A stretch of DNA of 64,000 bases. Source: Acidimicrobiia bacterium. GTDB taxonomy: Bacteria; Actinomycetota; Acidimicrobiia; Spongiisociales; ZC4RG35. The notes beneath the pieces were generated by a model. The model searched no databases. It was not told the DNA's origin and saw nothing but the letters and a program-made list of their open reading frames with translations. The stretch is taken from assembly GCA_965203555.1 (NCBI GenBank), contig CBDBCY010000004.1:352001-416000 (forward strand), in the 5' to 3' direction. Made by a program: the position numbers and the translations under genes. Shown in pieces: positions 32,826 through 55,700 of this stretch (the first letter of the stretch is position 1; each line of letters begins with the position of its first letter).

Positions 32826-32989
32826 GGGGTTGGCGCGTTTTTTGGCGCGTTATTCGTTGTGTTTGTCGTGGGGGGTTGCTTCTGTAGGGTAGTGGGGCGT
32901 CGGGCCGGGGTGGGGTGCTGGTTTTGGTGGGGAGGGGGTGGGTGACAGCCGGGTTTGTGTGGGTTGGGGCGTCTTTGCTTGGAGAGGGG

Positions 32990-34228
32990 CCGGGTTGGAA
33001 TTCCGTCCAGGGCGATTACTTCGGCGACTGCTTGTTTGGCTTTGGGGGTGGTGAAGGTGTGTTGCCCGAGGTTGACGGCTGCTGGTTTGTCTCCTTTGGT
33101 GCGTTGGACTTTGCTGATTGGGATGGCTCCGGTGTCTAGTGTGCGGTCGGCTAAATGAGCGGGGTGTCTGAGAACGACCGGAAGCCGGTTCTCACAGGGG
33201 CTACCCGCAGGGCGCCGCCTACCCGATTGTTTGGCAGACATACCACTAGGAACCGGTCGATGTCGGTGGCGTGCAGGGCCATGTCGTAGACGACCGCCGC
33301 GGAGGCCTTTCCGTAGTTGGGGGTGTCGGTTTAGTAGGCCGAGGACCATGTCGCAGAAGACGGTGGCGTCGCTTTTGCCTGGGGGTTTGAAAGCCGTGCG
33401 TAGGATGATTCGTTCGTTGCGGTAGGGACCGCGTACGCTGGCTAGGACCAGTTGTTGGCCGTAGGCACCCCGAGCGACCGTTCCGGTGGGAGTGTGGTAG
33501 GGAACCGCGTCGGGGTCGAACCGGCGGACCTTCCCGGTTTTCGGGTTGATGATTTGTCGTGAACCGGTCTTGTAAATGGACGGTATCCAGGTGCCGTCAC
33601 CCACAATGAACTGTGTAGTGTCGGGATGGTTGACAGATCCCGTTTCGGCGGATAGCAGGCCCATATGTAAGGTTGCGTCTACTTCTATGCGCTCCACGAT
33701 CAGGTCGAGTTCTTCGAGGATTTCTCCGTGAAGGTACCGTTCTCGGAAACGGTGATGCTGGGATCTGCTGATCGGTTTGTTCGAAAGTCTCCGATGGGGA
33801 TGCCGCGGCCAGGCTTGTGCGACAGTGTCTTGGAGGCGTTGCCAGGTTTTGGGGTCAGAGAAGGTCCTGGCGATGTCTCGACCATTGCCCCGCAGCCCGG
33901 CTGTCACCTCGAACAGCACCGCTTCGAACACTTTGTGTTCCCGCGGGCGGCCGGGTCCACGTGATTTCTCTGTGTCTTTTTCGAGGGCTTCGGCGTACTC
34001 CCACAACAGCCCGAGGCAGGCGTGTGCTTCGATGAGTTCGATGTGGGACAGGTCCAGTGGCTCGCCGTGGACGTTGTGGCTGCCCCCGCTGGACGAACCA
34101 GCCGTGTCCGATGGCCCATCACGGCGTTCCTCTGTTGTGTAGTCGTCTAGGGATGCTTTCACTTCGGAGGCGGGCACCGGTTCGACACCGGAGAAGAACA
34201 CCGACCGGCGGGGTTTCTCATCGGCCAT
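32990..34228 (-). pseudogene. DDE-type transposase-like protein; frameshifted, MITE-interrupted, apparently C-terminally truncated
   Basis: GRPR motif, IVGDGTW (candidate first Asp), RFDPDA, YGQQLV, out-of-frame VVYDMAL (candidate second Asp); degenerates into CA-rich end sequence after LDGIPT. Confidence 0.62.
33140..33245. mobile_element. 106-bp MITE-like insertion with CTAG duplication
   Basis: CTAG at 33136-33139 and 33246-33249; removal restores DIDRFLDTGAIPISKV; weak inverted ends TG....GTC.GC.AAA. Confidence 0.75.
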
Positions 34229-35105
34229 CGTTTCTCCAGTTGTGACCGAGCGCCGCGGCGGTGTTGTCCAACGACGGGGAACCCAAGAACCGTGCCGCGG
34301 TTTCGATCCCATGGGTGTCCAACAATCCGCGGGCGGTGGTTAGCCGGATTGACCGGGCCGACACTCTTTCACGGTCGGACAGTCCCGCGTCGCGGATCAC
34401 ATCCCGAAGGCGCACGGTCACTGAATGCGCGGCCCGTTCCGGTCTGACCCGGCTGGTTACACAAATCAGATGATCCGCGGGGATGGGAGGGCGGTTACGG
34501 ACGAACCGTGCGACTCTGGAAACCCCCCACTCGTCGAGAGGGTTCACCCGCCAAGACGACCCTTCGAAAACGACAGTCGCCGTTTGGAGGTTCACGTCTC
34601 CCATGCGTACCGCGGCGACTTCGGTGGCGGTTCCCCCCGCGAACGAGAACACCACCAGCAACGACCGTCGGGATCCCACCAGCCCAGCGTCCGCATATTC
34701 TCTCACACGGTTTGCCTCTTCGGGGGTCAGCGGACGCGCGGTCGGGGCGCCTCCCAAACGGAGAATGCGCTCCCCGACCAACGCCTCGGTGTCTACCGGT
34801 GCTCCCAGGTCGGAGAACACGTCGAACATAGCTGACGCGATCCACTGGCGGTTCCGAGCGGTGGACTGTGCCGTGCGACGATACTGTCCTTGCCTGTCGA
34901 CGCGGGACACCCAGCACCAATGCGACACCATTTCCGCGGTCACGTCCGACCACTTGTCAACGCCCCGCCCCTGCAAATAGGTCAGCAGCCTCCGAGCGTC
35001 GGCCACGACCTTGTCGGCAGTGCGTGGGTTGGAGGCGTATCGTTGACAAAGCCCTTCCAACACCAGCGGCACCCAACGAGGCAGACAGTCCCGGTCGTTG
35101 CTCAT
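34218..35105 (-). CDS. Tyrosine-recombinase-fold protein with degenerate catalytic residues
   Basis: SAM-like N-domain, RPLTPEE, GGTATEVAAVRMGDV (cf. GxRxxE), SARSIRLT (cf. HxLRH), FLGSPSLDNTAAAL (cf. LGHxxxxxTxxY); overlaps the transposase start by 11 bp. Confidence 0.72.
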   Translation of the reverse strand: MSNDRDCLPRWVPLVLEGLCQRYASNPRTADKVVADARRLLTYLQGRGVDKWSDVTAEMVSHWCWVSRVDRQGQYRRTAQSTARNRQWIASAMFDVFSDLGAPVDTEALVGERILRLGGAPTARPLTPEEANRVREYADAGLVGSRRSLLVVFSFAGGTATEVAAVRMGDVNLQTATVVFEGSSWRVNPLDEWGVSRVARFVRNRPPIPADHLICVTSRVRPERAAHSVTVRLRDVIRDAGLSDRERVSARSIRLTTARGLLDTHGIETAARFLGSPSLDNTAAALGHNWRNDGR

Positions 35106-35457
35106 CGCAAGACTCACGCTTTCCAGCAGGATCCGCATCCACGGTTGCAACACCGCGGTGTCATTGAACAACCTCAGTTGCCGTCCGCAGACGGTGAACG
35201 CGGATCGAGTCCCAAGCCGGCGCAGGTGCTCATGTCCGAAGAGCGAACTAGAGATTTCCTGGGATGCCAAAAACGTGTGGCGATAGTGGAGGTGTCCAAA
35301 TGGGAACATTTCGATGTTCCCGGTCAGTCCTCACCGCTCCCAACAGCTTCTGTCTCCCGGCAACCGATTCACGGGAGGAGCAGATCGAGATCATAATATC
35401 GTCCATTACGGAAGACATTAGAAAGGGGTAGTGACAGGACGACTACCCTTCACCCCA

Positions 35458-35759
35458 ATGTCCAACCCTCGACAAAACCAGCCGCGTTTCTCGCGAAAAA
35501 AACTTGTTTTCCCGAGGGGCCGTTCAGGTCTGCAACCCCGCCGGAGGTCTATTTAGCTGCTGGGTTGGCCACCCGACTCAAAACCAAAATCGGGAACGAA
35601 TCCATACGATACGTTGCAAAAAAAGCCCAGCTCAGCCCTCAAACAGTCCTCAACATTCTCAACGGCACGACCTGGCCCGACCTACGCACCATCGCCAAAC
35701 TAGAAGTCGCTTTGAACACCCGACTATGGGGATACGAACACCGCAAAACCCGCCGCTAA
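35458..35759 (+). CDS. XRE-family HTH regulator, divergent from the recombinase-like gene (1-nt frameshift near the 5' end)
   Basis: SIRYVAKKAQLSPQTVLNILNGTTWPDLRTIAKLE HTH; ATG 35458 joins it with one extra base near the A7 run at 35496-35502. Confidence 0.75.
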
Positions 35760-36320
35760 ACCCACCAACTGAAGCGCCAGCATTTGGACAGCGCCCTTCC
35801 GAGATGGACCGAACCTGCGAGGAAAAGCCGAACGGGTCGTGGCGCCCTTCTGGGACCCTCTGAGACAACTCGGACAACCGGTTCCCCCGGGTCGGGTCCA
35901 TTCCACTAGTTTGACACCCGAGGGGGGTGTCCAACCACGGGGATGCCGGACTGGGTGACCGCCCCCCTCTTTTGCAGGTCGAGAATGTAGGCAACACAAG
36001 GATTTCATGGGGGGACATGAACGAAGGGCTGATGAGCGGGGAGCGCTCGACGCGATCTGCGGCGTGGAAGACGTGATCGGCTGCGAGGCAAACCACCAAC
36101 ACCAACTAAAGTGCCTCGCCACCTGACTCTGCGGGGACATCTCCGGGTCGTCAGCCGGTGAGGGTCACCCCCTTTTGTTCCACGCTTGATTCCTACCTGC
36201 TTGCGCGGTCTTTGTCGATAGGAGACATCACGGCGGGACCGTAAGTCGGGGGTGTGACCGGGGAGGCGGACCCGCCTGGCTATCAACACCAGTAGACGGC
36301 TCACTGACCTTCCCCTCCTG

Positions 36321-36441
36321 CCGTAATCCGTAACGCGTAACAGTCCTTGAATATCCAGAAAAACATAACCCTACGCGGGGAAACGACCAGCAAACAGCCC
36401 GGAGTTCCGTTACAAACCGCTCGGTTGACGTTTCCGTTACA
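36321..36441. repeat. Cluster of short CCGTAAC / TTCCGTTACA motifs
   Basis: CCGTAAT-CCGTAAC-GCGTAAC at 36321-36341; TTCCGTTACA at 36405 and 36432. Confidence 0.55.
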
Positions 36442-36972
36442 CTTCCAAGCCGCCCCAGGCAACCTCCCTGCCGAGTCGGACCCCCCGAGAAGCCAGCACC
36501 GGCCCTTAGCTCCAGAGCATCTTTCTACGTGAAGTCATGCAGATCATGTGATTGTGTGTCGGGCATTCCAGTGCTCAAATCGTTCGTGGGAAGGGCCAGC
36601 CTTAATTTTAGGACAAGTGGGCTGATCCGGCCACGGAACCACCGGCATGGGATGGCCTGTTGGCTCCACGCCTGACCTCGGAATCTAGGCAGGGTTCCGA
36701 AGGTAACCAACATCCAAACTTGGAAGTCTCCACATGGCTTGCAGCCGCTGCCTACGACCCATATCTGCCGTAACGGATGTGTCCTGGGTACCGGAATGTA
36801 ACGTGTCGGATCGCGCCCTTCTGGATTATGCTATGGCCCCGGTGGGAGTCCTACCTACAAGGCGACACCAGTGGCGCCACGAAACGAGGGAGCGGTCAAC
36901 GATCTGGAGGAAAGGACAAAACCTGGTTGAAGTTACGGTTTCACATGAACTCCACGTCCAGAAGGGGGAAGA

Positions 36973-37248
36973 GTGACGACCATCGAGTCGGAGAGGGCCG
37001 TTGTCCCCCCTGAACAGGGAAACCTGGTTCGTGTCCGAGACCGGTTTTGGGTCGTCGAGTCTGTACAGCAATCGACTAACCGGTTAGATGTGACCAGTTC
37101 GAATGGGTGGAATCGCCATCACCTGGTGCGCCTGGTTCCCATCGACAACAAAGGAAGCCCCTCGCCGCTGAGCATCTTTTGGGAGACAGAACCAGGTACC
37201 GAAATCCGACCCCAGTCCGAGTTGCCCGATCCCAGCCAGAGTGTTGAC
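36973..37248 (+). pseudogene. N-terminal fragment of a DISARM DrmD-like SNF2 helicase
   Basis: PEQGNLVRVRDRFWVV..HLVRL..IFWETEPG..LPDP resembles DrmD N-termini; cut exactly at a transposon-end copy. Confidence 0.65.
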
Positions 37249-37295
37249 GGGGTTGGCGCGAAACTGTGTGGGTTTGGGATTTTATGGTAGTGGGG
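37249..37295. repeat. Transposon-end copy 2 (47 bp)
   Basis: GGGGTTGGCGCGAAACTGTGTGGGTTTGGGATTTTATGGTAGTGGGG, 46/47 identical to 55654-55700. Confidence 0.9.
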
Positions 37296-37567
37296 TGGTG
37301 AAGGGAGATCCCGCACCGTCTCGCCGGGAACACGGAGGAGGAACGGATAGTGTTCCATGTGGGCATTGCCCGCTCCCGGAGAGAAACGGTGGTGGCGGCG
37401 GAGACCGGGAACGAGTCGCCTTTCATCTCGGAGGCGCTGGGAAAGAGCAACCTTGAGTCAGCGCTTCCCGACCCGGGTGCCACGGCAACAACTCGGGAGA
37501 TATCGCAGTGGTCATAGCACACGGTTGGAGAATGCGGGCTGGATCTGATCTTCAAGTCGCTCGTGCG

Positions 37568-37596
37568 GCGCTGGGATGCTCAGAGCATCCCAGCGC
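37568..37596. repeat. Perfect palindrome with 14-bp arms
   Basis: GCGCTGGGATGCTC-A-GAGCATCCCAGCGC. Confidence 0.85.
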
Positions 37597-37770
37597 AGAC
37601 CCGACTGGGTACATCAAATTGCAGGGGGTTCGCATCTGTGGGGTACCATCTGGTCGACAACACCCCGGCAGGGATAGAGAGGCATTACGGATCTGATAGC
37701 AGAACTCGGTACCTCGCGTTCTTTCGATCTGTGGGCAGGGTCTGACGGTTCGGAAACGGTCGGTCAGGTC

Positions 37771-40700
37771 GTGGAGAGAATAAGATCGGAAGCCCGCGAC
37801 ACAGCAGAACTGGGTCGATGGTTCTCGAACCTTGTCAGGGTTGTGTTGGTGGACCTCCCCGAGTACGAAATGGAGGAGGTGCATCATTGGGCGGACTGGC
37901 CCGAACGCGAGGCGCTTACCGGTCGCCCTCCATCCGATTGGGGTATTGATCTGGTGGGGCGTCGCACCGATGGCAGTTTCGTCGCCATACAGTGCAAGTG
38001 CTATGACCAGTCCCGCAAGGTCGGGAAGCCGGACACCAACTCGTTTCTGGCCAATTCGCAGTTACCGGTGTTCACGAAACGGTGGATTGTTACCACCAGC
38101 GACTGGACCAAACCAGCAGCTCGGGAAATCGACGGGATGCATCCGCCGGTCGGGCGCATCAACTTTCTCCGGCACTGGGACCATCCGGTGCCAGGCGAGG
38201 CTGCGGAACGGCCCACACAAGCTCTGTACCCGCGGCAAGAGGAAGCTGTCAACAAAGTAGTGGAAGGGTTCGCCCGTCACGACCGGGGCCGTTTGGTGAT
38301 GGCGTGCGGCACCGGGAAAACGTTCACTTCGTTGCGGATAGCCGAACAGATCGTACCGGATGGGGGACGCATCCTGTTCTTGGCGCCGAGCATTTCTCTG
38401 GTGTCCCAGTCAAGGCGGGACTGGTTGACTCACACCCGACGGCGCCTGTCATCCCTGGTGGTCTGTTCGGACACCACAGCTGGAGGCAAGCAGGAAGGGG
38501 ACATGCGCGTTTCTCATCTGGCGTGCGACGTGACCACCAGCCCCGAGGTGATTGCGTCCAAGCTGGACACTTCTGACACGTCCGTCCTTTTTTGCACATA
38601 CCAATCTCTTCCGGTGATTACCGCAGCGCAGGGAGAACACGACGCGCCCCGGTTTGATCTGGTTGTGTGCGACGAGGCTCATCGAACAGCCGGTGCTTTC
38701 AAGGCCGACCCGAGGGTCTTTCAGAGGATCCACTACGAGGAACATTTGAAAGCCGCCAAGCGCCTGTATATGACCGCTACTCCTCGGGTGTACACACCGG
38801 CGTCCAAGTCGTCCTTGGCGGCGAGGAACATAAGCGTTGTGGACATGACCGACCACTCGGTTTACGGACCGCAGTTTGACCGGTTGACGTTCAGAGAGGC
38901 TGTCGAGTTGGACATTCTGAGCGACTACCGGGTGATCGTTCTGCGAGTGCGGGAATCAGCGCTATGGCCCAGCATCCGAGCCGCGTTGGTGTCCCTCGCT
39001 GGCGATTCCGCTCTGAACAGCGGCGGCAAACCCCTCACTGTGACCACCGAAGATCTACAGAGAGTGCTCGGTGCCTCCCTAGCCGTGAACGGGATGGCGG
39101 AGGGTGTCGGTCCCGACGTGCCTGAACGGCTGAACCGAAGCATCGCGTTCGCCAATTCCATTGCAAGGTCCAAGTTCTACGCCAAGGCGTTGGACCATCC
39201 TCTGCTCAAACGGTTCGTGACTCGGAGGCGAAGGCAACGAAGCGCCGGAGCGGAGGCAGCATTGAAAACCGAAGTTCAACATCTCGACGCGAGAAACTCG
39301 TCGTATCAGCGGTTCCAGGCATTAGAGAAACTGCGCAGCGCGGGGGCGGATGGCGCCGCTCGCATCCTGACGAACGTGAAACTGTTCACCGAGGGCGTTG
39401 ACGTGCCGTCGCTCGACGCGGTTGTGTTCATGGAACCCCGCAAGAGCCACATTGACATCGTTCAGGCTGTTGGGCGTGTGATGCGCAAAGCAGAAGGCAA
39501 ACACCTCGGCTACATCATCGTTCCCATCGCGGCCAGCAGCGAAGACTCCCTCAATGAGGTGCTGACCGCTCACCACTCCGAATACCGTGTCGTGGGACAG
39601 GTACTTGCAGCTTTGCAATCCCACGACGAACAACTAATGGAGTCGGTCGCCCAGTATGTGACGATGATTGATGTGGACCGGCAACCTACCTCTGCAAATG
39701 GTGGTGAAACCACCAATGTCACCGACGACGACTGGATCGAAGAGACGCTGCCTCTGACCATCAAGGAAATAGGGGATGTTCTGCGTCCGGTCGTGATAGC
39801 AGCGTCGGGCCTAGGACGCCCCGGCAAACTGGTCACTGACCTGATCGCGGCAGCTGTCCGGGCTGCGGCGTCCGTGCTCGACGAAGCCCGACGGGATGCT
39901 GTGACAGGTGACTTCATCCCACAGTTGTCGGATGCCCTGGGTGTACCGATCGATGACGCTAAGTCGTTGGACACCTGCAAAATGGCCGCGTTGCTGATCG
40001 GGAACGCCTGCCTGCTTCACAAGCGGCTGCGTACCGTGGGACAGTGGTGGGATGTTCTGCCGGACATGTCAACCGTCGCGGTGTCTTCCGATCCCCTTGA
40101 CACCTTGAGAACCGCGTGGAAAACCATCCTGGACAAGGACTATGAACCGGTGTTCGACCCGGCTCTGACGGTGCTCGAATGCCTGCCCGGGTCACAGGCG
40201 GCGGTACAGCACAGCATCAGGATGCTCGCTGAATGCGCCGACAACACAGCTGACACGCTCAGCGAACTCGGCTACGACCACGCCGGACCCCTGTATCACA
40301 ATCTCATGCCTGATTCGCAGGCCAGGGGCGCCTACTACACCAACAACCTCTCCGCTTTGATGCTCGCCCGCCTGGCCATCGGACCGGACTTCGCGGACTG
40401 GCACAACCCAGACAGCATCAGCCGACTGAGGATCATGGACCCCGCATGCGGCACCGGCACCCTGCTCATGGCTTCCCTGAAAACGATCAAAGACAGGGTA
40501 GCCGAAGCAGGGAACACCGCAGACAGCGGTACCGCCTTGCATAAGACCCTGGTCGAGCAAGTGCTATACGGTCTCGACATCAACCAGGTCGGCATACAAC
40601 TGGCCGCTTCCAACTTCACACTGGGAGCACCGACCGTTGACTATCAGCGCATGAACCTGTACACGATGAAACACGGACCCCAACCGGACGGCACGGTCAA

Positions 40701-42216
40701 AGCGGGCACACTCGAGATGCTCACCTACGCCGACGAACATTCCCTGCAAAGCCTCGTCCGACCGACCGGCCCGCGGTCGGGGGTAGACGGCGATCATGTG
40801 GGCGGCGGTGACAGCACCTTCCCCCACAAAGACCTCGATCTGGTCATTATCAACCCACCGTACACACCCAAACATGTTCGCAACCAGCAGTTCACCGACG
40901 ACGTGAAAGATGCGATGCAAGACCACGAACTGCGAATCAGAGACACAGTCGTAGCAACAAATGCCAGCCTGCGAGATGTTGTCGACCCCAACAGCATTCG
41001 CACGTTCTTCACTCCTGTGGTGGAACGCTTAGTCCGAGACACCCAATCCTCACCACCAGAGAACGCGTATCTGGAAGAACACTCCACCGATCCCAGAAGC
41101 AACATCGGGCCGTCACAGCCCACTTTGGCCAAGGTACTTTCGGCTGCAGCCTGCCTAAATGCAGATGGCGTCAGTGAACGCAGGTTCCTGGCGCGGTCTT
41201 TCCACATCGAGCGGATAATCACCTCACACGACCCCAAGCGGGTCAACTTTTCCGAGAACACGAACGTGCATGAGTGTCTGCTGATCGCACGCCGCGCCAA
41301 TCACCCCCCCCCCCACACACACAAGCCGACCGAGTTCGTATCTCTCCGCAAGATGCCCTCCACACCTGAAGAAGCCATAGCAGCAGCAGACCAAGTCTCG
41401 GCGGGTGAACCTTCTTCGTGGGGATCGAGGACACTGTGGCCAGCTGACCGAGTGCAAGATGGCGACTGGGCGCCCGTGCAATGGTACAACTTCGATCTGG
41501 GTAGAGTTGCCCGGCGACTCGGACAGCACGGTGCCCTCGAAGCTGTCGGACAAAGACACTTCGTAGGGCCCACCGGCGAGAACATCGAAAGCACCACCCG
41601 CAGAGTCAGCGAAGACATCCCACCAGATGCCAGACGATGCTTTACATCCATAGCGGTTCGCCACCATCAGACCATGGGTGCCACCCCAGATGCCTGGGTA
41701 GCCGCCAAGCCGGGCAAACAAAACACATTCGACTACTACTGGAACCAGAAGAGCAATGTGCTGGTTGCCAAGCGGTACAGAACAACCTCCAGCCTGCTAT
41801 TGGCCGTGTGGAGTGACACGCCTTCGATAGGTAGAGGCAACGGATGGATGCCCGTAGGCGTTAACGACCAAGCAATGGGCAAGGGGCTGGTTGCGTGGTG
41901 GAACTCGACCCCCGCGACGATGATCCTGCTGAACCGCCGCTCAAAGATGCTGACTTACGTGAAGTGGTCCGTGGGACAGATGCGCTCCATCGGGATTCCT
42001 AAACCAGACAATCCCTCCTGGTCGGCTCTGACCTCGGCGTACGAAGAAGCCAAGAACACACCGATGCTTCCCCTCAAGCAGGGCACCGCCTGCGAAGCCC
42101 GATCAATCATCGACCAAGCAGCTGCTCTCGCGCTCGGTATAGACGGCGAACAAGTGGCCGAGTGGCGACACATGCTCACCGAGGAACCCACGATCTCTAA
42201 CCGTCCAGCCAACTAG
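37771..42216 (+). CDS. Single-polypeptide restriction-modification enzyme, type ISP-like (Mrr-type nuclease, SF2 helicase, N6-adenine MTase, specificity region)
   Basis: GIDLV..AIQCK, MACGTGKT, CDEAHR, TATP, QAVGRVMRK, DPACGTGT, INPPY. Confidence 0.9.
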   Translation: MERIRSEARDTAELGRWFSNLVRVVLVDLPEYEMEEVHHWADWPEREALTGRPPSDWGIDLVGRRTDGSFVAIQCKCYDQSRKVGKPDTNSFLANSQLPVFTKRWIVTTSDWTKPAAREIDGMHPPVGRINFLRHWDHPVPGEAAERPTQALYPRQEEAVNKVVEGFARHDRGRLVMACGTGKTFTSLRIAEQIVPDGGRILFLAPSISLVSQSRRDWLTHTRRRLSSLVVCSDTTAGGKQEGDMRVSHLACDVTTSPEVIASKLDTSDTSVLFCTYQSLPVITAAQGEHDAPRFDLVVCDEAHRTAGAFKADPRVFQRIHYEEHLKAAKRLYMTATPRVYTPASKSSLAARNISVVDMTDHSVYGPQFDRLTFREAVELDILSDYRVIVLRVRESALWPSIRAALVSLAGDSALNSGGKPLTVTTEDLQRVLGASLAVNGMAEGVGPDVPERLNRSIAFANSIARSKFYAKALDHPLLKRFVTRRRRQRSAGAEAALKTEVQHLDARNSSYQRFQALEKLRSAGADGAARILTNVKLFTEGVDVPSLDAVVFMEPRKSHIDIVQAVGRVMRKAEGKHLGYIIVPIAASSEDSLNEVLTAHHSEYRVVGQVLAALQSHDEQLMESVAQYVTMIDVDRQPTSANGGETTNVTDDDWIEETLPLTIKEIGDVLRPVVIAASGLGRPGKLVTDLIAAAVRAAASVLDEARRDAVTGDFIPQLSDALGVPIDDAKSLDTCKMAALLIGNACLLHKRLRTVGQWWDVLPDMSTVAVSSDPLDTLRTAWKTILDKDYEPVFDPALTVLECLPGSQAAVQHSIRMLAECADNTADTLSELGYDHAGPLYHNLMPDSQARGAYYTNNLSALMLARLAIGPDFADWHNPDSISRLRIMDPACGTGTLLMASLKTIKDRVAEAGNTADSGTALHKTLVEQVLYGLDINQVGIQLAASNFTLGAPTVDYQRMNLYTMKHGPQPDGTVKAGTLEMLTYADEHSLQSLVRPTGPRSGVDGDHVGGGDSTFPHKDLDLVIINPPYTPKHVRNQQFTDDVKDAMQDHELRIRDTVVATNASLRDVVDPNSIRTFFTPVVERLVRDTQSSPPENAYLEEHSTDPRSNIGPSQPTLAKVLSAAACLNADGVSERRFLARSFHIERIITSHDPKRVNFSENTNVHECLLIARRANHPPPHTHKPTEFVSLRKMPSTPEEAIAAADQVSAGEPSSWGSRTLWPADRVQDGDWAPVQWYNFDLGRVARRLGQHGALEAVGQRHFVGPTGENIESTTRRVSEDIPPDARRCFTSIAVRHHQTMGATPDAWVAAKPGKQNTFDYYWNQKSNVLVAKRYRTTSSLLLAVWSDTPSIGRGNGWMPVGVNDQAMGKGLVAWWNSTPATMILLNRRSKMLTYVKWSVGQMRSIGIPKPDNPSWSALTSAYEEAKNTPMLPLKQGTACEARSIIDQAAALALGIDGEQVAEWRHMLTEEPTISNRPAN

Positions 42217-42521: not shown

Positions 42522-43527
42522 ATGAACTTCGATGCTGACCTGAGAGACATCATCGAGTCCTATTTCGCCTCCGAGGGTATCCGGTACGAAAGCAGCGACG
42601 AACTAAGCCGCTTGGCGGTCCACTACTCTGAAATGCGGATTAGAAGAATCCCTGCGGTGCCCCGCACAGTGCATTTCTCCAATGAAATACATTCCTCTTT
42701 GGGTGAACTGGCCCGAGAAACGGACAGCGCCAAGGCAGCTAAGACTTCAGAGGCCTGGGGAACGGTCTTTTATCTTCACCAACTGTTTGTGGAAGGGGAA
42801 TCTGTGATCCCTCATCTGAGCAGACGGGTTGAGAATGCTGCAACGCAGGACCCGCTCTTGTGGGACTGGGCCCTTCATCATCTCCACCTCAGACGACATC
42901 CCGAGGACTCGGGTTTCGTCAAACGATCCGATTACTTGCTGTTTGCCATCGTCACCGGCACCGAGGCGTTCTTTGTAGATGTGAGACCCCACACCGATCC
43001 CGAGAAATTGTTGTGGTACAGACAGGACCTGATGCGGATTGTGCATTCGAACTGGCCAGAGTTGATCAAACCAAATGTCCTTCACGGTGTGACAGGTGAC
43101 GAATTGACGGACCAGCAAAGAAAGGTGCTGCGAGAGAAGAACACGAATTCCGTCATGGAATTGGGAGGGAAGGCCGTTGGCGCTCGGAGGGGGACTGATG
43201 CGTGACGGCAGCAGCCTACGGTGCAGGTGGTGGGTGATGCGGCTGCGGTGGGAACTGAAACAACATGCAGATCATCTCAACGCCAACGCCGCCGCGGTGA
43301 GGAAGGCACTGAAAGAGAAAGGGATAGACACCAGTGGAGGCCCGGACTTGAAGCTCGCGCTACTGGACGACCTGAACCCCCCATCGGACCTTGTCCAGTC
43401 CCTGCAGGAAGACAACGGTTTGAGCAAAGACTTGTCCCGTATGGGGTTTGTGATCGTCGAAGCTACCACGCTAACGCCCATAGCGGTCAGCATCGAAACG
43501 TCAAGCCCTTCGACCACGGCACTGTGA
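42522..43527 (+). pseudogene. Hypothetical protein split by one frameshift near 43180
   Basis: Overlapping ORFs 42522-43205 (DWALHHLHL..GFVKRSDYLLF) and 43177-43527 read as one protein; RBS-like AGAGGGG before ATG. Confidence 0.6.
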
Positions 43528-43534
43528 TTTGTGT

Positions 43535-46047: not shown

Positions 46048-47970
46048 ATGAGGCTCTCGTCGTTTCAGGTAGGTCCGTACCGGAACGTGCTGGATTCCGA
46101 CCCTGTCGATGTCCACCCGGAGGTAACCGTGTTGGTTGGCAAGAACGAGTCGGGCAAGACCAACCTACTGCACGCCCTTCACGCTCTAAAACCGGCCAAC
46201 GGCGAACGTGCTTTCCCCCGACTCGACTATCCCCGCTGGCTGCAGAAAGCCCACGAACGCAGCGGCGAGTACAAGAAAGCCAAGCCGATACAGGTCGTTT
46301 TCGATCTCACAGATGAAGATGTCCAAGCGGCCACCGACAGGTTCGGCGAGAACGTCCTGACCGCGAAGACGGTTTCTGGTTATCGCACCTACGAATCCGA
46401 GGAATTTGTCTTTTGCCCGCCCGCTTGTGACGTAACCACCGCACTAAAGCGCCTTTACAGGAACCTCTCCGTGCCGTTTCTGGAGGGGGCCTCCGACATC
46501 GGACGCCTTCGGGAGCAGCTGCAGAGCACCGCCCAAGAAAGGGGTCAGGACGGCCAAACCAATCATGCTGTCACCGCAGGCGAGGTGCTCAAACGTTTGG
46601 AAGCCGCCTACAGCGGTTTCGATTCCGTCTCCGAAGCAATCTGCGCTTTCCTTTCGGAACGTGTCCCTCGGTTCTTCTACTTCGATAGATACGCTGAGTT
46701 GCCGGGAACCACCGACACCGGGCCGCTTGTTCAGCATCTCCAGTCAACGGAACTCACGGGATCCTCAGAACTAAATTCTCGGCAGCGGACCGCTCTCGGC
46801 CTTCTCCGTATGGGGTTAGCCGACGATGAGATAATCGCCGACGAATACGACGCTCGCCAGGCCGAGTTGCAGGCCGTGAGCGCCGAACTCACCCGGAAAG
46901 TGCTGGACTACTGGAAGCAAAACCAGCACCTCCGTTTGACGATCAACATCAACCCCGTCGTTGACAGTAGCCATTATCCGAGCATCCTGCGGCGCGAATT
47001 GAAGCTTGATGTGATGGATGACCGGCATTATTTCACCAACAGTCTCGATGCTCGGTCCAACGGCTTCCGGTGGTTCGTTTCGTTCATAGCAGCCTTCGCC
47101 GAGTTCGAGGAGGACTCGAACGTGATCGTTCTCCTGGACGAACCCGGATTGAATCTCCACGCCCGCGCCCAGGCGGACTTCCTCCGATTCGTCAACGAAC
47201 AATTGGCTGCCAGTCACCAGGTCGTGTTCACGACCCACTCGCCGTTCATGGTTGACCCCGCAAGGCTTGACCGCGTACGCGTGGTCGAGGACACCGGCCC
47301 TGACATCGGAGCCAAGGTCGCCACGACGGACAACGCATCGAAAGACCGCGACACCCTCTTCCCGCTCCAAGCCGCCCTCGGATACGATATCGCCCAGAAC
47401 CTGTTCGTAGGCCCGGACAACCTTGTGGTTGAGGGACTCTCCGACTTCACCTACCTGACGACCCTCTCCAACCACCTCGCCTCCGTGGATCGAACCCACT
47501 TGGACGAACGGTGGAGAATCCTCCCCGCGGGAGGCGCCACCAACATCCCCACCTTTGTTGCACTGGTCGGACCGTCGCTCGATGTCACCGTCCTAGTTGA
47601 CGGCGCCGATGCTTCAAGCCAGAAGATCCGCAACCTTATGGAGAAGGGACTGCTCGACGACAAGCGCCTGCTGACCCCTAACGCCGGAACGCCCACTAAA
47701 GACGCCGACATCGAGGACCTGTTCACCGACGAGGACTATCTGAGGATATACAATCCCGCCTTAAATACCGCCTTGAAGATCTCGGACATCTCAGGTATCG
47801 ACCGGCTGACCAAGCGCATCGAAAGGGCAGCGGGAAAGTTTGGACACAACAAGCCGTCCACCTATCTACTGCACAACCGGGACAAGATCCTTCCCAAACT
47901 GTCAGAAACCACCTTGGAGCGTTTTGAGAAGATGATCGTGGCAATCAACAAGACACTGACGGCTGACTAG
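46048..47970 (+). CDS. OLD-family ATP-dependent nuclease (ABC ATPase + TOPRIM)
   Basis: GKNESGKT, SNGFRWF, LLDEPG, TTHSP, TOPRIM VVEGLSD, DIEDLF; RBS GAGGAGG. Confidence 0.88.
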   Translation: MRLSSFQVGPYRNVLDSDPVDVHPEVTVLVGKNESGKTNLLHALHALKPANGERAFPRLDYPRWLQKAHERSGEYKKAKPIQVVFDLTDEDVQAATDRFGENVLTAKTVSGYRTYESEEFVFCPPACDVTTALKRLYRNLSVPFLEGASDIGRLREQLQSTAQERGQDGQTNHAVTAGEVLKRLEAAYSGFDSVSEAICAFLSERVPRFFYFDRYAELPGTTDTGPLVQHLQSTELTGSSELNSRQRTALGLLRMGLADDEIIADEYDARQAELQAVSAELTRKVLDYWKQNQHLRLTININPVVDSSHYPSILRRELKLDVMDDRHYFTNSLDARSNGFRWFVSFIAAFAEFEEDSNVIVLLDEPGLNLHARAQADFLRFVNEQLAASHQVVFTTHSPFMVDPARLDRVRVVEDTGPDIGAKVATTDNASKDRDTLFPLQAALGYDIAQNLFVGPDNLVVEGLSDFTYLTTLSNHLASVDRTHLDERWRILPAGGATNIPTFVALVGPSLDVTVLVDGADASSQKIRNLMEKGLLDDKRLLTPNAGTPTKDADIEDLFTDEDYLRIYNPALNTALKISDISGIDRLTKRIERAAGKFGHNKPSTYLLHNRDKILPKLSETTLERFEKMIVAINKTLTAD

Positions 47971-49593: not shown

Positions 49594-51147
49594 TCACCGG
49601 GCGAGGATGTTGTGGAGGCGGTAGAGGAACGTAACGATTTGTGCTCGGGTTACGGTCCCGTTGGGGTCAAACCGGCCTTCTCCCACACCAGCGGTCATCT
49701 TGGTGGCTACGGCCCACCCTATTGCCTCATCCGCCCAATGTCCGGCTGGGACATCTGCGAATGTACCAGAACCAAGGGGGACGGTGGTGGGCGCATCGGC
49801 GAGGATGTTGTGGAGGCGGTAGAGGAACGTAACGATTTGTGCTCGGGTTACGGTCCCGTTGGGGTCAAACCGGCCTTCTCCCACACCAGCGGTTATGTTG
49901 TTGCCCACCGCCCATCTGATAGCTTCATCCGCCCAGTTCCACGGGCTGACATCAGCGAAGCTTCCTCCCCACTGTCGGGCGTCGTAGTTGTCCCACCAAT
50001 CGTCGTTAGCGGTCTCGTACGCAGCGCGGGCGCTGCCGTATGCTGCTGCTGCGGCGCTAAGAGCGGTGCGGGCTGTCAGAGCTGAGTGGATAGCGTCTAT
50101 TGCGCCATCTCCCTCAATGTCCTGGCTGCCGGCTATGGCCACCAAGGCTCTTGCTGTTCGGTGTTCGGCGGTGCGGAGGGCTTCGAGAACATCTCCAGTG
50201 CTGGCGGTAGTGTCAGTACCGCGGGCCTGGGCGACAGCCGCGGCTAGCACCGCATCGTGGTATGCGTTGGTAGCGTTCCCGACCGCGGCGACGGCCGAGT
50301 TTTGTTCTTGGCGGTAAGCATTTTCAGCGTCGTTCCATTCGTCAAGTGCCGCATCAACATCTTCCCACTCTTGGGCGATAGCGGCGGTTCGGGCATCATT
50401 ACGGGCGGCGAGAGCTTCGAGATCCGCGGCGGTCAAGCTATCGTGCCAAGTGGTAAGTGCCATATCCTGAGCAGCGTTGGAAGCCTTTAGCGCTGCTCGG
50501 TCAGCATCCTGGTTTGTTTCGATGGTCTCACGGTCCGCCACCAGTAGGGTATGGGCCGATGTCAGAGCATCGTGAGCGGTAGTGAGACCTCGGGTGCGAT
50601 CCTGTGCAGCAGACAAAACGTCCGTAAACACTGCCGTGTCGCCGGTAGCAACACCCTCAGCGGCGCCCCGGAGTGCCTCAGCGGCGGCCCGGTAAGCCGG
50701 AACAGCCTCATCGTTGTAGGCGGCTATTACCGCTTTCAAGGCTGTGTGATCTGGCTCCGGTGTCTGGTAATCAATCTGCGCCGCGCGTAAGTTTCGCCAG
50801 GCATCCCACGCCTCGTCAGAGGCATCAAAGAGAGCAAAGAGGTGAGCTATGTCGGCGTCGGTGGCCTCAAGATTCGTTGTTCCGTTGGCCAAATTATGAA
50901 ATCGATACAGGAAGTCAATCAACCGGGACCGGGTTACCGTGCTGTTGGGTTCAAACCGGTCAGGTTCCACTCCCTCGGTTATGTTGCTGTTCACCGCCCA
51001 TCCGATAGCCTCATCCGCCCAATGCCCGGCTGGTACATCCGAGAAACCATCGGAACCCGGCGGGATGTCTGCGCTCGATGGGGCAATGACACTTACCAAG
51101 AGAACTACGAAGACAGCAGCAACCACGGATCTGCGCCAGCGCGTCAT
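49594..51147 (-). CDS. Secreted S-layer homology (SLH) domain protein
   Basis: Signal peptide; three FxDV..WADEAI.WA..G..RFxPNxTVTR modules flanking an Ala-rich helical region. Confidence 0.9.
   Translation of the reverse strand: MTRWRRSVVAAVFVVLLVSVIAPSSADIPPGSDGFSDVPAGHWADEAIGWAVNSNITEGVEPDRFEPNSTVTRSRLIDFLYRFHNLANGTTNLEATDADIAHLFALFDASDEAWDAWRNLRAAQIDYQTPEPDHTALKAVIAAYNDEAVPAYRAAAEALRGAAEGVATGDTAVFTDVLSAAQDRTRGLTTAHDALTSAHTLLVADRETIETNQDADRAALKASNAAQDMALTTWHDSLTAADLEALAARNDARTAAIAQEWEDVDAALDEWNDAENAYRQEQNSAVAAVGNATNAYHDAVLAAAVAQARGTDTTASTGDVLEALRTAEHRTARALVAIAGSQDIEGDGAIDAIHSALTARTALSAAAAAYGSARAAYETANDDWWDNYDARQWGGSFADVSPWNWADEAIRWAVGNNITAGVGEGRFDPNGTVTRAQIVTFLYRLHNILADAPTTVPLGSGTFADVPAGHWADEAIGWAVATKMTAGVGEGRFDPNGTVTRAQIVTFLYRLHNILAR
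49600..49893. repeat. 96-bp exact direct repeat within the last two SLH modules
   Basis: 49600-49695 is identical to 49798-49893. Confidence 0.88.
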
Positions 51148-51373
51148 ATGCTAAAGCGACCCTTCGGTTCTCTGATACGCACCCGCACAACAGCTCCTTT
51201 GACGGTTGGGGGACCTCCGAACCTGGCTCGCTCCCCTCGGACCGTTTCCCGCTGAATCCTATCACCGGAAGAAGCGAGGCACAATATCCCAAACACATCG
51301 CACGGATTCAGTCTTCAATCGCCCCTCCCGTAGACGGGAGGCGGGAAGGACTTGAATCCACCGATCAGGCGGT

Positions 51374-51607
51374 ATGGGTGAGAAGTGGCGGTATCTTGAG
51401 AACTCCGTAAGCGTAAGAGAGGCAGTCGAGCCCGGCCTGCGCCACTATAGAGTCGGCGAGCTGGAAAAGGCAGCCGGAGTGTTCATCGATGAGGATGCGA
51501 TGGCTGGGCTCGAAGGAAAGCTCGTCCCAAGAGCTCACGCGGCATGGACTACGGAATTCGGAGGGGGATCATGTGGTGACGGACTTTCGGAAGAACATGC
51601 ACTTTGA
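51374..51607 (+). CDS. Small hypothetical protein
   Basis: 77-aa ORF after AGGCGG; no recognisable motif. Confidence 0.35.
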   Translation: MGEKWRYLENSVSVREAVEPGLRHYRVGELEKAAGVFIDEDAMAGLEGKLVPRAHAAWTTEFGGGSCGDGLSEEHAL

Positions 51608-51809
51608 GTTAGAGTCCGGCAGCGCGTTTGTGTGGCCGAATTAACGGAAGGTCGTCTGTGATGCAGCCCCAACAGCGTAATAGGAACGAAAGGTAGTGGT
51701 GAGCGGGTCAGTCGTGCAACAATTGGTGTCCTTTGGCGGGTAGCCGTGTCGCTGGACAACACCAAGACGACATTGCTCGTTTGGCTACCGATATGAGAAC
51801 ATGGCGGAA

Positions 51810-51990
51810 CCTCAACCATGTCGAGTAAGCCACCTTGGAGTAGGTGGACTGGTTTAACCATCGGTGGCTCCTCGAATCCATCGGACACATCCCACCAGCA
51901 GAGAAGGAGGCCAACTACCATCAACAGCACACCCCAGCACCCCTACCTGGTGTCAAGCAAAACACGCTTCGGTAAGCCTGGGGCGGTTCA
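51810..51990 (+). mobile_element. IS3-family 3' remnant with right inverted repeat
   Basis: VE*ATLE*VDWFNHRWLLESIGHIPPAEKEANY and terminal CCTGGGGCGGTTCA. Confidence 0.85.
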
Positions 51991-52015
51991 GTTCAATGAC
52001 TGATCGGAGACTCCA

Positions 52016-52832
52016 ATGGCCATGTTCGACCCCAACCTGACGCGCGCGGTCGCTAGGATCTCCTCAGCCGACAACATGAGACACGGCACAGGGTTTCTCT
52101 TCGATGCCCCACCTCCAAGGGAAGAAAGCAGGATGGGTACCTGGTTCGTGACTTGCAAACACGTCTACGAGGGGATTCGCGAGGACGGGGACAAGGCCCT
52201 CATCTGGTTCAACGGCAACAGCGACCACTTGGGGGTCATACCGATGGAGGTTTGGGTCGCAGGCACCGAAGGGGGGGTGGCTTTGGACCCTGCACGACCA
52301 GTACGACGTGGCCGTCCTAGCGTTCTATGCGCTGGAGGAAAACCCCAACATCAGCTTCGCGAGACTCCCCCGGAAAGACCACTCCCTCGACAGACTGCAA
52401 GCACAGCAGATCGGGATTTCCGAGGGGGATGGAGTTTACATCTTGGGATTCCCTGTCGGGTGGGAGCCGTCCGATCGCCGCCATTACCCGGTCGTCCGAT
52501 TCGGGGTTGTGGCCCAAATCCAGGGACTCTATGACGGGTCGCACTCGACGTTCCTGGTTGACGGATCCGCGTTCGGGGGCAACAGCGGCAGCCCAGTGCT
52601 CACCAAGTTCGAGGTGGCTGGCATCCGGGGACTTCCGGTAGTCGACAGCACCAACCTGATCGGGATGGTCAGTGCATACAAGCTCAACCCGTCTCTTCTG
52701 GGCGAGATTTCAGAGCAGCAGGTGCTCTCCCGATTGATCGCAACCGAGAACGCCGACCTGATAACAGTGATCCCGGTAGACCACATCGACGAGACAATCG
52801 GCATGGCCTGCGAGAAGTACGGGATCACTTAA
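52016..52832 (+). pseudogene. Trypsin-like serine protease split by +1 frameshift in a G7 run
   Basis: Triad VTCKHV (ORF1), YDVAVL and GNSGSP (ORF2); G7 at 52271-52277. Confidence 0.82.
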
Positions 52833-52889
52833 ACGGGGAAAACGTCCTGGGTCCTCACGGATAGCTAATCTTCGAGAGTGTATCGCCCC

Positions 52890-53120
52890 GATGCTCCTAT
52901 GTTTGTCAAATCGGGTTTCGGTGGGGTGGGAGGGTGGTGAGCCATTGGTGGTAGCGGGTGGCGAGGTGGTGGTCGTGGTATTGGCCTCGTTCGAGTTGGG
53001 AGATGCGTGTTGGGTAGGTTCGGAGGGCTTCGGCGGCGTGGTTTAGGGTTGTTCCGGCGTTTTTGCGTAGGCAGCGAAGGTCGTTGCCGTGGAGCGTGGG
53101 GTGTGGGTTGGTGAGCCTCC
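52890..53120 (-). mobile_element. IS110-like 3' remnant (C-terminal HTH plus end)
   Basis: Minus strand LTNPHPTLHGNDLRCLRKNAGTTLNHAAEALRTYPTRISQLERG..LATRYHQWL then TTGACAAACATAGGAGCATC, an end pattern recalled from actinobacterial IS110 elements. Confidence 0.65.
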
Positions 53121-53195
53121 TAGTCAGGTGTTTCTGCCGGTAATGTCAGGTGCTGGAAGTCAGTTCGGGGAAACCTTGGGGGTCGTGGTCGGGTC

Positions 53196-54833
53196 GTGAA
53201 AGAGCTGGAGTGTCTACTGGAAAGTGTCCCGAATTCATTACCACTGTGGGGCCTCCTGGGACGGGGCGACCCTCAGGGTGCTGTAATCGAGGCCAGTTAT
53301 GAAGCAATCCGGCCGGGACTCCCTCCCGAGGACATTCACAATCGGTTGAATGCTGTTGCTTGGTTGGTGTATTGGCTCATGCGCTACGGTCACGGGCCGC
53401 GGTCGCGAAGCCAACGCGTGGATTCTCTCCGTCGTTTGCCGGGCTTTGGCAAAGCATGGTCGTTAGCGGAGCACCACCAGAGCATGAAGGATTATCTGTC
53501 ACAGGTGGTGTTTGGTGTGAGGGCATACGAACATCAGGACTGCCTGATCCGCCTTGCCTACAACGGACAGCCCGGGCTTGCCCTGCTCTCGAAATACCTG
53601 ACATATAAAGCAGGTGTTGATCTCAATCTCTCTCTCAATCCGTACGTAGACGCTCTCGCGGAATACGCCGAGAGCGCCGCGGCCTCAAGAAACTGGTTCC
53701 GTTCACCCTCCCAGATCAGGAACCTTGCTAGAAAGGCGACGGACCATGTAAAAGGTCCGATCCGGCCCTATTTGGACCCGACACTCCAGACCCCGATAGG
53801 CGTGACCCTCGGCGATTTGGAAAAGTATTGGAATGAAATCTCGGCTATCAGCCTTTACGACTTTTGGATCATGCAGGCAAAGGAGTCGCCCAACAGGTTC
53901 ATACATATCCGCGAGAAATTCGTAGGAAACATGGCAAGAGCAGCTGAAATATCGCGAGAGTCGGCTGATGAGATCACCAAGACGTTGACATTGAACAAGG
54001 ACAATGCTCAAGATCCTGATTCGGCTGCTGTTCACAATCCTCAGTTGACGCCCATTGTGGAGTTCGAGGGCGGGTTGTTCCTGGTAGCACCTCTCCTTAT
54101 CCCATCGTTACCCTCTCACCAAACCATGAAGATGCTACAAGTGGCCTACGCCGGACAGCCCTTTCTCAAGTTGGGCCATGACCTGGGCAAAGAGGGCGAG
54201 GAACGGGTAGCTGCCCTATTAGAAAAGAAGCTCCGAGGGGACATTCGGATCGATACCAACGTCTTGACGATTGAAGGCCGCCGCCAATGTCCCGATCTCG
54301 ACGTGGTGGTTTATTCCCCCGGCGAGGTGTTGATAGTCATGCAGGTCAGATGGCACATCATGGTCAACAACCAACACGAAGCCCTTCTTCAACAGAGAAA
54401 CGCCAGGAAGGACCGCCAAGACCTAGAAACACTCCGTGACAAAATCAACGCCGGAGGGGTGCATGTGCAGTGGCCCTCAGAGTGGGGGAATGTTGACGCT
54501 GATCGATGCGAACGTAGATGGTTCGTCTTAAACCATGACACAATGCCCGTACACGACATTGGTGACAGCGACATCAAAATGCGGTCGTACATGCTGATCG
54601 AACACTTGTTACCTGGGACAGAGCACTCGGCACACGACCTGGTAAAGCTGTTGGACTGTCCACCTACCCCAGCAGCAGGAGACCCCCGGTTGGACAGAAT
54701 CCGGTACGGGGGGATCCAGATAGAAGCGGAACACCCCGATTTTCACCCGGACCAGCCACCCCCGTTTGACGACCTATCAGAAATCGTCCGTCTCGTCCTC
54801 AACCCTGCGGCACGCTACGAGCAACGTCAATGA
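53196..54833 (+). CDS. Hypothetical protein with C-terminal PD-(D/E)xK-like nuclease fold
   Basis: 545-aa lower-GC ORF; GKEGEERV..PDLDVVV..MQVRW. Confidence 0.6.
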   Translation: MKELECLLESVPNSLPLWGLLGRGDPQGAVIEASYEAIRPGLPPEDIHNRLNAVAWLVYWLMRYGHGPRSRSQRVDSLRRLPGFGKAWSLAEHHQSMKDYLSQVVFGVRAYEHQDCLIRLAYNGQPGLALLSKYLTYKAGVDLNLSLNPYVDALAEYAESAAASRNWFRSPSQIRNLARKATDHVKGPIRPYLDPTLQTPIGVTLGDLEKYWNEISAISLYDFWIMQAKESPNRFIHIREKFVGNMARAAEISRESADEITKTLTLNKDNAQDPDSAAVHNPQLTPIVEFEGGLFLVAPLLIPSLPSHQTMKMLQVAYAGQPFLKLGHDLGKEGEERVAALLEKKLRGDIRIDTNVLTIEGRRQCPDLDVVVYSPGEVLIVMQVRWHIMVNNQHEALLQQRNARKDRQDLETLRDKINAGGVHVQWPSEWGNVDADRCERRWFVLNHDTMPVHDIGDSDIKMRSYMLIEHLLPGTEHSAHDLVKLLDCPPTPAAGDPRLDRIRYGGIQIEAEHPDFHPDQPPPFDDLSEIVRLVLNPAARYEQRQ

Positions 54834-54945
54834 CATTTTCTAGTGGTCGGTTGATCTACTAGGGGAGTGGAGCCTATGATCCGGCTAGTGGGGACTGCCG
54901 ATCTCGTTCCATCAGGTCGCCTGGGACGCCGCTGTGAGTGCTGGC

Positions 54946-55278
54946 GTGAGTATTGAACACCGACGTGGGAATGCCCGCTGGTGTGAGAACTGCGCCACGG
55001 CACGTCGACGGCGGCAGAAAGCCGTTTACGCTCGTCGTTGGCGGGACTCGAAACACCTGTGCGGTATGCCCCCCGCTGACTGGTATGTGGAGAACCCGGA
55101 TTTGTCGGACATGTGGGTGTGCGGCACGCCCGATCCTGGTGTGTGTGCCCTGTGCGGCGAGGAGGGACTGGTGGCACTCTGGCGATTTCCAGCGTTTTAC
55201 ACAGCGGTGTGTTCGCCAATCCGACCGGACTCTCATCCCTGGCCATTCTCGTTCTCGCGTCATACCCCGCTGCGCTGA
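54946..55278 (+). CDS. Small Cys-rich (zinc-finger-like) hypothetical protein
   Basis: WCENCA followed by a basic helix, CALCG. Confidence 0.45.
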   Translation: MSIEHRRGNARWCENCATARRRRQKAVYARRWRDSKHLCGMPPADWYVENPDLSDMWVCGTPDPGVCALCGEEGLVALWRFPAFYTAVCSPIRPDSHPWPFSFSRHTPLR

Positions 55279-55431
55279 ATGGGTGGGGGTACCGGATTGC
55301 TGAGGGAACGCCTTGTCGTTGATGTGATCGGAGTGGGCTAGGGCGTACCGCTACCCAGCCGACGCCGCTCCGCCCGGAAGCCTGGGCGCGTTATGTCCCC
55401 ATAAGGCGCCCTTGAGGTTCGTCCAGGCGTG

Positions 55432-55471
55432 GCTATGGTTCCGACTTGGGTAGCTATGGTTCCGACTTGGG
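55432..55471. repeat. Tandem 19-bp repeat (period 21)
   Basis: GCTATGGTTCCGACTTGGG at 55432 and 55453. Confidence 0.85.
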
Positions 55472-55653
55472 CCCGACTGGCGAGTGTCTGGAATATTCGA
55501 AGAAGTGTGGCGGAGTACGACAGAAGACTTGGGCCAAATCCACCGCGATCAGGCCATGAAACCGTGGCAGATTCGGGCTTAGACCGTGTCAAAGCCCTTT
55601 CCATGCAGGCCTCTGACCTGCGCTTTGCATTTACGCGCCAGCGCCACAAGGGC

Positions 55654-55700
55654 GGGGTTGGCGCGAAACTGGGTGGGTTTGGGATTTTATGGTAGTGGGG
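55654..55700. repeat. Transposon-end copy 3, directly abutting the right target duplication
   Basis: GGGGTTGGCGCGAAACTGGGTGGGTTTGGGATTTTATGGTAGTGGGG. Confidence 0.9.

Follow-up and report, generated by a model that had tools for sequence, protein, structure and literature searches.

We analyzed a 64,000-nucleotide (nt) stretch of an Acidimicrobiia bacterium genome (GenBank assembly GCA_965203555.1, contig CBDBCY010000004.1, positions 352,001 to 416,000; hereafter the window) and found that three related sequences in it, beginning at 32826, 37249, and 55654, are probably the left ends of an undescribed family of site-specific cut-and-paste transposons of Acidimicrobiia that targets the transfer RNA (tRNA) gene tRNA-Arg(CCT). 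An earlier reading made without database searches (the sequence-only reading) had reported three related ends at these positions, the third lying right after a duplicated tRNA octamer and each carrying an outward-facing −10-like motif; it had proposed that a newer insertion pushed an older element away from the tRNA site and that the end supplies a replacement promoter for the tRNA. The three ends, the position of the third, and the outward-facing motifs were all borne out. The features assigned to the putative transposons are as follows, with amino acids abbreviated as aa and open reading frame as ORF.

32752..32825, minus strand: tRNA-Arg(CCT), the only copy in the genome (ARAGORN and Rfam; 1 of 47 tRNAs in the whole-genome ARAGORN run)
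32826..32980, minus strand: left end of element A (copy 1), about 155 nt common to relatives without the transposase gene; terminal repeat at 32826-32837, second GGCGCG repeat at 32844-32849, tRNA-facing TACCCT at 32886-32891
32996..34228, minus strand: transposase pseudogene, matching residues 1-374 of an intact 539-aa homologue
34218..35309, minus strand: tyrosine-recombinase-fold partner, a 363-aa ORF overlapping the transposase start; homologues are about 330 aa
37249..37300, minus strand: left end of element B (copy 2), flush to a truncated drmD gene; TACCAT at 37284-37289
55561..55645, plus strand: right end of element B, kept in seven right ends of relatives; subterminal ACCGTGGCAGA at 55561-55571 and ACCGTGTCAAA at 55583-55593, hairpin at 55604-55622, terminal CGCGCCAGCGCC at 55634-55645
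55646..55653, no strand: second octamer ACAAGGGC, the putative target duplication (sequence repeat)
55654..55704, minus strand: copy 3, a putative older left-end relic of about 50 nt; TACCAT at 55689-55694

The 12-mer GGGGTTGGCGCG matches the plus strand exactly at all three positions. Its count is by itself within chance, since three or more matches occurred in 11 of 100 shuffles when one mismatch was allowed; the longer repeats, unlike the bare 12-mer, exceed chance. Copies 2 and 3 are 96% identical over 52 nt (37248-37299 and 55653-55704; repeat family D5), or 46 of 47 positions over the span given in the sequence-only reading, and the 20-nt ACAAGGGCGGGGTTGGCGCG is identical at 32818 and 55646 (repeat family D12). 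Around the hexamers stand TAGGGTAGTGGGG at 32885-32897 and TATGGTAGTGGGG at 37283-37295 and 55688-55700. Copy 1 begins at the base just before +1 of tRNA-Arg(CCT), and the octamer ACAAGGGC at 32818-32825 is the reverse complement of tRNA bases 1-8. The second octamer is directly preceded by the right end CGCGCCAGCGCC, an imperfect inverted GGGGTTGGCGCG, so that the unit 32826-55645 is bounded by imperfect terminal inverted repeats, agreeing at 14 of 18 positions by manual count, and by the 8-bp direct repeat. This combination of right end and octamer is found once in the genome, at 55634. Copy 2 is joined flush to the truncated drmD gene, with neither octamer nor target duplication. Copy 3 is followed by no transposase fragment, and the partner right end that the sequence-only reading had expected beyond 64000 was found nowhere in the whole genome; copy 3 appears to be the relic of an end. 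An independent contig set, whose sample is possibly the same as that of the window's assembly, spans 36000-45219 and 51912-55999 without rearrangement.

Further sequences resembling the right end were noted. An inverted right-end-like terminus lies at 42233-42268 on the minus strand, 17 nt past the stop codon of the restriction enzyme gene of the cargo, and is identical to 55610-55645 at about 29 of 35 positions (manual count); together with the true right end it makes two right-end termini that face each other and bracket 42233-55645. An orphan right end at G000:C4:2445723 (L041, about 10720-10860, minus strand) has three ACCGTGGCA repeats and a terminal CGCGCCATCGCC, with no octamer, tRNA, or left end nearby. 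At 45234-45400 is a dispersed repeat of about 180 nt, corresponding to residues 109-168 of a 191-aa minus-strand ORF. At least 11 more copies, 55-82% identical at the protein level, are spread over the genome; the repeat is covered at raised depth in the DNA runs and recurs just inside the orphan right end (G000:C4:2445833-2445937). A joint from 45399 to 55561, seen in one DNA run, was considered as an alternative form of element B and rejected, as the paralogous orphan right-end locus has the same arrangement and is most likely where the joint stems from. We also rejected the idea that the right end is a decayed tRNA copy sharing a GCAGG...CCTGC stem: Rfam sees just two real tRNAs, and the GCAGGTC block is also kept where the T-arm of the host tRNA differs.

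The proteins of the family to which the pseudogene belongs are about 540 aa long. The intact homologue of relative G012 was modeled with AlphaFold at a mean predicted local distance difference test score (pLDDT) of 79.5, and in a Foldseek search the top five matches of the model were all Tn5 transposase (best E 7e-7, probability 1.00), followed by PiggyBac, Mos1, and ISCth4. Across 44 sequences, D216, D319, and E477 (L044 numbering) are invariant. The IS4-type signature at the third catalytic residue is defined as Y-x2-R-x3-E-x6-K; the family has FGLR-x-D-x-ESTNSH-x-K, that is F/Y-x2-R-x3-E-x6-K, with R and E invariant, K nearly so, and F in the first position. Fold and catalytic residues alike identify the modeled protein as an IS4/Tn5-like DDE enzyme. 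A profile search found 1394 representative proteins at E<=1e-3 and 338 at E<=1e-30, and the window transposase had no match among the Pfam, NCBIfam, and PHROG families. In the window copy, the second catalytic Asp lies in a YDMAL segment that has fallen out of frame, and about 165 C-terminal residues past residue 374, catalytic Glu included, are deleted. Judged from its sequence, this copy is dead and element A is now non-autonomous.

The partner was modeled at pLDDT 86 as a complete two-domain fold, core-binding and catalytic, that matched XerA, Tn1549 Int, IntI, XerH, lambda Int, and Cre, all with probability 1.00. A profile alignment to XerA (5hxy) placed T at Arg I, A at the Lys, S320 at the His, and S346 at the His/Trp position; extending the register by eye placed A353 at the Tyr. 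Of the catalytic set R-K-H-R-H/W-Y the partner keeps just Arg II (R322), and five of the six residues are replaced. S320, R322, and S346 are invariant across 43 partner sequences and A353 nearly so. Because the active-site residues are replaced and the replacements are conserved, the modeled partner is best described as a conserved DNA-binding shell without catalytic chemistry. Sequence searches of Pfam, NCBIfam, PHROG, and PDB named no family for either core protein, with the sole exception of a weak XerC-like match for the partner.

The two proteins also keep company. The partner gene lies directly upstream of the transposase gene in all six loci that have both a complete transposase start and upstream DNA; in G012 it appears frameshifted. 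A complex model of the L044 pair scored 0.61, against 0.00 for the best of three controls; in calibration, 116 of 157 solved complexes scored at least this high, as did 2 of 215 mismatched pairs. The model runs agreed in at least 95% of contacts, with a pLDDT of about 80 for the partner, and placed transposase residues 385-391 and 421-426 against partner residues 75-122. The modeling supports binding between the two, and the partner may act as a selector of the ends or of the target, a role we propose by analogy with TnsF of Tn6022-like elements.

Of 16 same-genus genomes, 15 yielded the tRNA locus. A left-end-like sequence lies upstream of the tRNA in all 15, "empty" loci included, and in each the tRNA 5′ end is followed by GGnGnTGGCG... 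and then T(A/T)(T/G)GGTA. Two relatives, G016 and G001, are nearly free of an island, with conserved flank beginning about 140 and about 690 nt from the tRNA, and they retain a shortened left-end-like sequence with TACCAT. Outside the genus, four tRNA-Arg(CCT) loci had unrelated DNA upstream, and in 24 other-genus genomes no match reached more than about 10 nt past the tRNA. The junction of right end, ACAAGGGC, and left end recurred in 6 of the 15 relatives (G002, G003, G004, G006, G012, and G014), 3.3 to about 43 kb from the tRNA and twice in G003. A flush joint of the left terminus to unrelated DNA was seen in two genomes, at 37248/37249 in the window and at position 5669 of L025 (G004). The search for transposase homologues was positive in 8 of 41 genomes, all of the window's genus; the tally includes G027 and G038 (unpublished), which gave no match. 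The matches that could be placed (G000, G012, G004, G009, G003, G002, and contig 25 of G008) adjoin the tRNA or lie just within displaced left ends, many of them as C-terminal fragments; four more, three of them in G008 and one in G016, are on short contigs and had no placement.

Beyond these genomes, a scan of one genome per species gave 21 loci, titled as metagenome-assembled genomes (MAGs) of Acidimicrobiia, Acidimicrobiales, and Actinomycetota and one Bifidobacterium breve record; the relatives G012 and G003 are among the 21. At 11 of these loci, tRNA-Arg(CCT) begins 176-237 nt past the transposase match and shares its strand. Loci L053, L056, and L061 have 12/12 inverted repeats, GGGGATGGCGCG and CGCGCCATCCCC, flanked by the 8-bp direct repeat GCCCTCGT, and their units are arranged head to tail: L056 has three junctions spaced about 0.9 kb apart, and L053 and L061 have two each. 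A newer element has displaced an intact one in L045. Tandem arrays, which the sequence-only reading had suggested seeking in relatives, are present there (twice in G003, and in L053, L056, L061, and L045). The recurring junctions and the arrays in distant MAGs strongly support its proposal that elements stack at one tRNA site; copy 2, flush and without a duplication, is not a simple stacked insertion.

Two observations concern derivatives of the family. The array units of about 0.9 kb (L056 5554-7326; L053 2772-3711) each carry both transposon ends and look like non-autonomous miniature derivatives. Beside the left end in many loci, just transposase residues of about 405-529 are left, and retention of this same segment suggests that a single deletion derivative has spread.

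The left ends also share a block that may drive the tRNA. Among 41 distinct left ends, 36 carry CTAC(C/A)(C/A)T and another two lack the leading C but have TACCCT or TACCAT, so that a hexamer facing the tRNA (TACCCT, TACCAT, or TACAAT) is kept in 38. It lies 38-89 nt before the tRNA, at a distance that varies with the one to three CGCGCCA repeats, and changes just at positions 4 and 5, with T1, A2, and T6 never varying. The operon of partner and transposase reads toward the tRNA. In the window, 22.8 kb of element DNA separates the single-copy tRNA from anything farther upstream, for which reason its transcription would have to start inside element A. We lean, with some reservation, toward the view that the left end carries the promoter for tRNA-Arg(CCT).

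We propose the following scheme, in which the chemistry, the role of the partner, the promoter activity, and the order of events are inferred. The IS4/Tn5-like DDE transposase and its catalytically dead partner would insert the element across bases +1 to +8 of tRNA-Arg(CCT). Staggered cuts would duplicate the octamer, leaving the tRNA whole and parting it from its former upstream DNA; a Tn5-like transposase explains both the inverted repeats and the 8-bp duplication. The left end would then abut tRNA +1, and the −10-like TACCCT or TACCAT, 35-60 nt upstream in the window, would supply transcription. Each new insertion would enter the tRNA-proximal octamer and displace earlier elements. This equates the proximal element with the newest because the tRNA body is assumed to be part of the target, and the displaced intact element of L045 fits. 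A left end may have become fixed beside the tRNA in the ancestor of the genus, copy 3 being the remnant of an early one. Element B (37249-55645), with its defense cargo, would have inserted after the element of copy 3, and A (32826-37248) would be the newest. A deletion, probably made by the transposase, would have removed the right part of A, from within drmD to the terminus of B. At its outer borders the unit as a whole retains a proper left end, a right end, and the pair of octamers.

Several observations count against this scheme. The relatives are all metagenome-assembled and related by descent, so that their counts are not independent, and in the two best-studied genomes, those of the window and G012, the two core genes are never both intact. 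Among 19 members of the transposase family, just one matches Pfam DDE_Tnp_1, with an E of 0.005 that does not pass the cut-off. Scanning for the sigma-70 consensus revealed no promoter in either end; the RNA runs, available as contigs with 0.06-0.08 of the sampled words, gave no readable start; and the hexamer could be a protein-binding site instead of a −10 element. Lastly, an arm, 8 bp, and a second arm also make up a tyrosine-recombinase core site, between which and a duplicated target the sequence alone is indecisive.

That ambiguity opens the way to an integrase-type island, in which the octamer would be the crossover region between the tRNA 5′ end and an attP core (arm, ACAAGGGC, arm). 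The tyrosine recombinase at work would be either the 363-aa protein, by means of its non-canonical residues, or an enzyme supplied in trans by the host, and the DDE gene would be a passenger. CGCGCCAGCGCC-ACAAGGGC-GGGGTTGGCGCG does resemble such a core with an 8-bp spacer, the partner has the complete two-domain recombinase fold, and integrase islands typically accrete in tandem at tRNA sites. We nevertheless consider this improbable: most of the five replacements in the partner, that of the nucleophile Tyr among them, are conserved in the 43 sequences; scans of the larger ORFs at 32.8-55.7 kb with Pfam, NCBIfam, and PHROG named no active integrase or other recombinase; the DDE gene stands at the left end throughout, in one orientation; and the two flush joints lie at the arm boundary, not within the octamer. 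We favor the DDE route because the nucleophile is missing from the sole recombinase-like protein, the DDE triad never varies, and flush joints are expected from aberrant end-joining by a transposase, not from a crossover inside the octamer. It is very improbable, in turn, that the three copies are native tRNA-Arg promoters spread by segmental duplication or unequal crossing-over, with an element merely adjoining them. The sequence does stand beside the tRNA in every same-genus genome, even in G016 and G001 with little or no island. However, CGCGCCA repeats and TACCCT flank elements in hosts whose transposases are just 37-55% identical, the copies stop exactly at GGGG beside the octamer or unrelated DNA, two-ended units of about 0.9 kb follow one another head to tail, and the other-genus loci and genomes described above lack the sequence.

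For the promoter, the competing view is that TACC(C/A)T is a binding site of the transposase or its partner and that the tRNA is transcribed by read-through from the operon or from elsewhere. Displaced and tRNA-adjacent ends alike retain the block, the sigma-70 scan found no −35 partner, and the operon points the right way for read-through. We hold this view to be fairly unlikely, as variation confined to positions 4 and 5 of the hexamer is what a −10 element would show and operon-less relics, such as those of G016 and G001, still keep the block beside the tRNA. The replacement promoter of the sequence-only reading has indirect support: conservation of the hexamer and the separation of the tRNA from chromosomal upstream DNA speak for it, but the promoter scan does not.

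A more specific version of the transposon reading is one we put forward tentatively and with more doubt than belief. In it, a Tn5-like transposase took on a dead tyrosine recombinase as its DNA-reading subunit, with arm sites around an 8-bp spacer, and the left end is the sole tRNA-Arg(CCT) promoter throughout the genus. If so, the partner would bind the termini and the tRNA 5′ region and hold the transposase by its insertion domain, strand transfer would occur exactly across the former crossover region of the recombinase, and the host could not lose the last relic, which would mark the site for the next insertion.

Element B and its left border carry genes assigned to anti-phage defense and related functions.

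36973..37248, plus strand: DISARM DrmD-like helicase gene, N-terminal part of about 92 codons ending exactly at copy 2 (NCBIfam, PADLOC)
37771..42216, plus strand: fused Mrr-nuclease/helicase/N6-methyltransferase, type IIG- or type I-like, 1481 aa (Pfam, PADLOC)
42522..43205, plus strand: PD-T4-7-like defense protein (PADLOC, E 5e-34)
46048..47970, plus strand: AAA_15/AAA_21 ATPase resembling OLD, AriA, and GajA (Pfam, PADLOC)

Further cargo of the unit comprises an SLH-domain protein and a weak NERD match (Pfam). The SLH-domain gene (49594-51147) has internal direct repeats of 162 nt in three copies at 69-100% identity. To the right of the unit lies an IS21-like insertion sequence (58146-60432) with 50-nt inverted repeats at 82% identity; its istA-type transposase gene (58993-60291, minus strand) encodes rve and Mu-transposase C-terminal domains, and a nearly identical copy of the element is found inside the island of G003. 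Genes for error-prone polymerases, imuB-like and dnaE2-like (PHP and Pol III alpha), occupy positions 61195-64000. The distance between imuB and tRNA-Arg(CCT) is 250-390 kb in relatives, which rules out imuB/dnaE2 as the native right flank. Since these genes are so far from the tRNA in relatives, a large rearrangement has affected the right flank of the island in the window genome, and the ancestral site is not shown there.

If the proposed scheme holds, a small transposase and a recombinase-derived selector would form a compact two-protein targeting system with a single-base-precise chromosomal site, which would bear on the evolution of transposon target choice and might offer an insertion tool. 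A bacterial element at the 5′ end of a tRNA would have to replace the promoter, not the 3′ end of the gene, and the host would come to depend on a transposon end. The family would also account for a hot spot of anti-phage genes in uncultured Acidimicrobiia.

Among known systems, IS4/Tn5 (IS50) is the best structural match: it shares the DDE core with a β-strand insertion domain, the Y/F-R-E-K signature, short inverted repeats, and a target duplication of similar size, 9 bp in Tn5 and 8 bp here. The window family differs in having no significant sequence-family match, in always traveling with a second protein, and in its left end with one to three direct CGCGCCA repeats and a right end with other subterminal repeats. 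Tn5 inserts almost at random, whereas the target here is absolute for one tRNA gene. Islands that integrate at tRNA genes have in common with the window a tRNA hot spot, direct repeats at the borders, defense cargo, and stacked elements with or without their own recombination genes. Such islands use active tyrosine or serine integrases, usually enter the 3′ part of the tRNA, and carry a replacement 3′ piece; here, in contrast, the site is +1 to +8, the enzyme is a predicted DDE transposase, and it is the promoter that must be replaced. TnGBS and ISLre2-type elements reportedly have a Mutator-like transposase, target many promoters, and leave the promoter in place because they enter upstream of it; here one gene is targeted and its promoter would be replaced. 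These are DDE elements that insert upstream of promoters (Guerillot et al. 2014, PMC3942029), and the likeness is an insertion site set relative to a transcription signal.

The closest parallel to the partner is TnsF of Tn6022-like Tn7 transposons, in which, according to Faure et al. 2023 (PMC10293859), a protein with an inactivated tyrosine-recombinase domain selects one conserved site, comM, for a DDE transposon; TnsF has N-terminal zinc fingers and works with TnsA/B/C and TniQ (PMC10293859). Both systems place an inactivated tyrosine-recombinase protein beside a DDE transposon, the selector role here being inferred. The window family differs in a partner devoid of a zinc-finger region, a single Tn5-like transposase, and a tRNA 5′ end as target. 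Pfam scans of 31 of the larger ORFs of the region found no TnsA/TnsB/TnsC-type domains within 32.8-55.7 kb, and the lone rve/Mu-type transposase of the scanned region belongs to the separate IS21-like element at 58-60 kb. Our literature searches, whose coverage left out most subscription journals, returned no description of such elements. The family belongs to a known kind, that of site-specific DDE transposons that work with a protein partner of their own.

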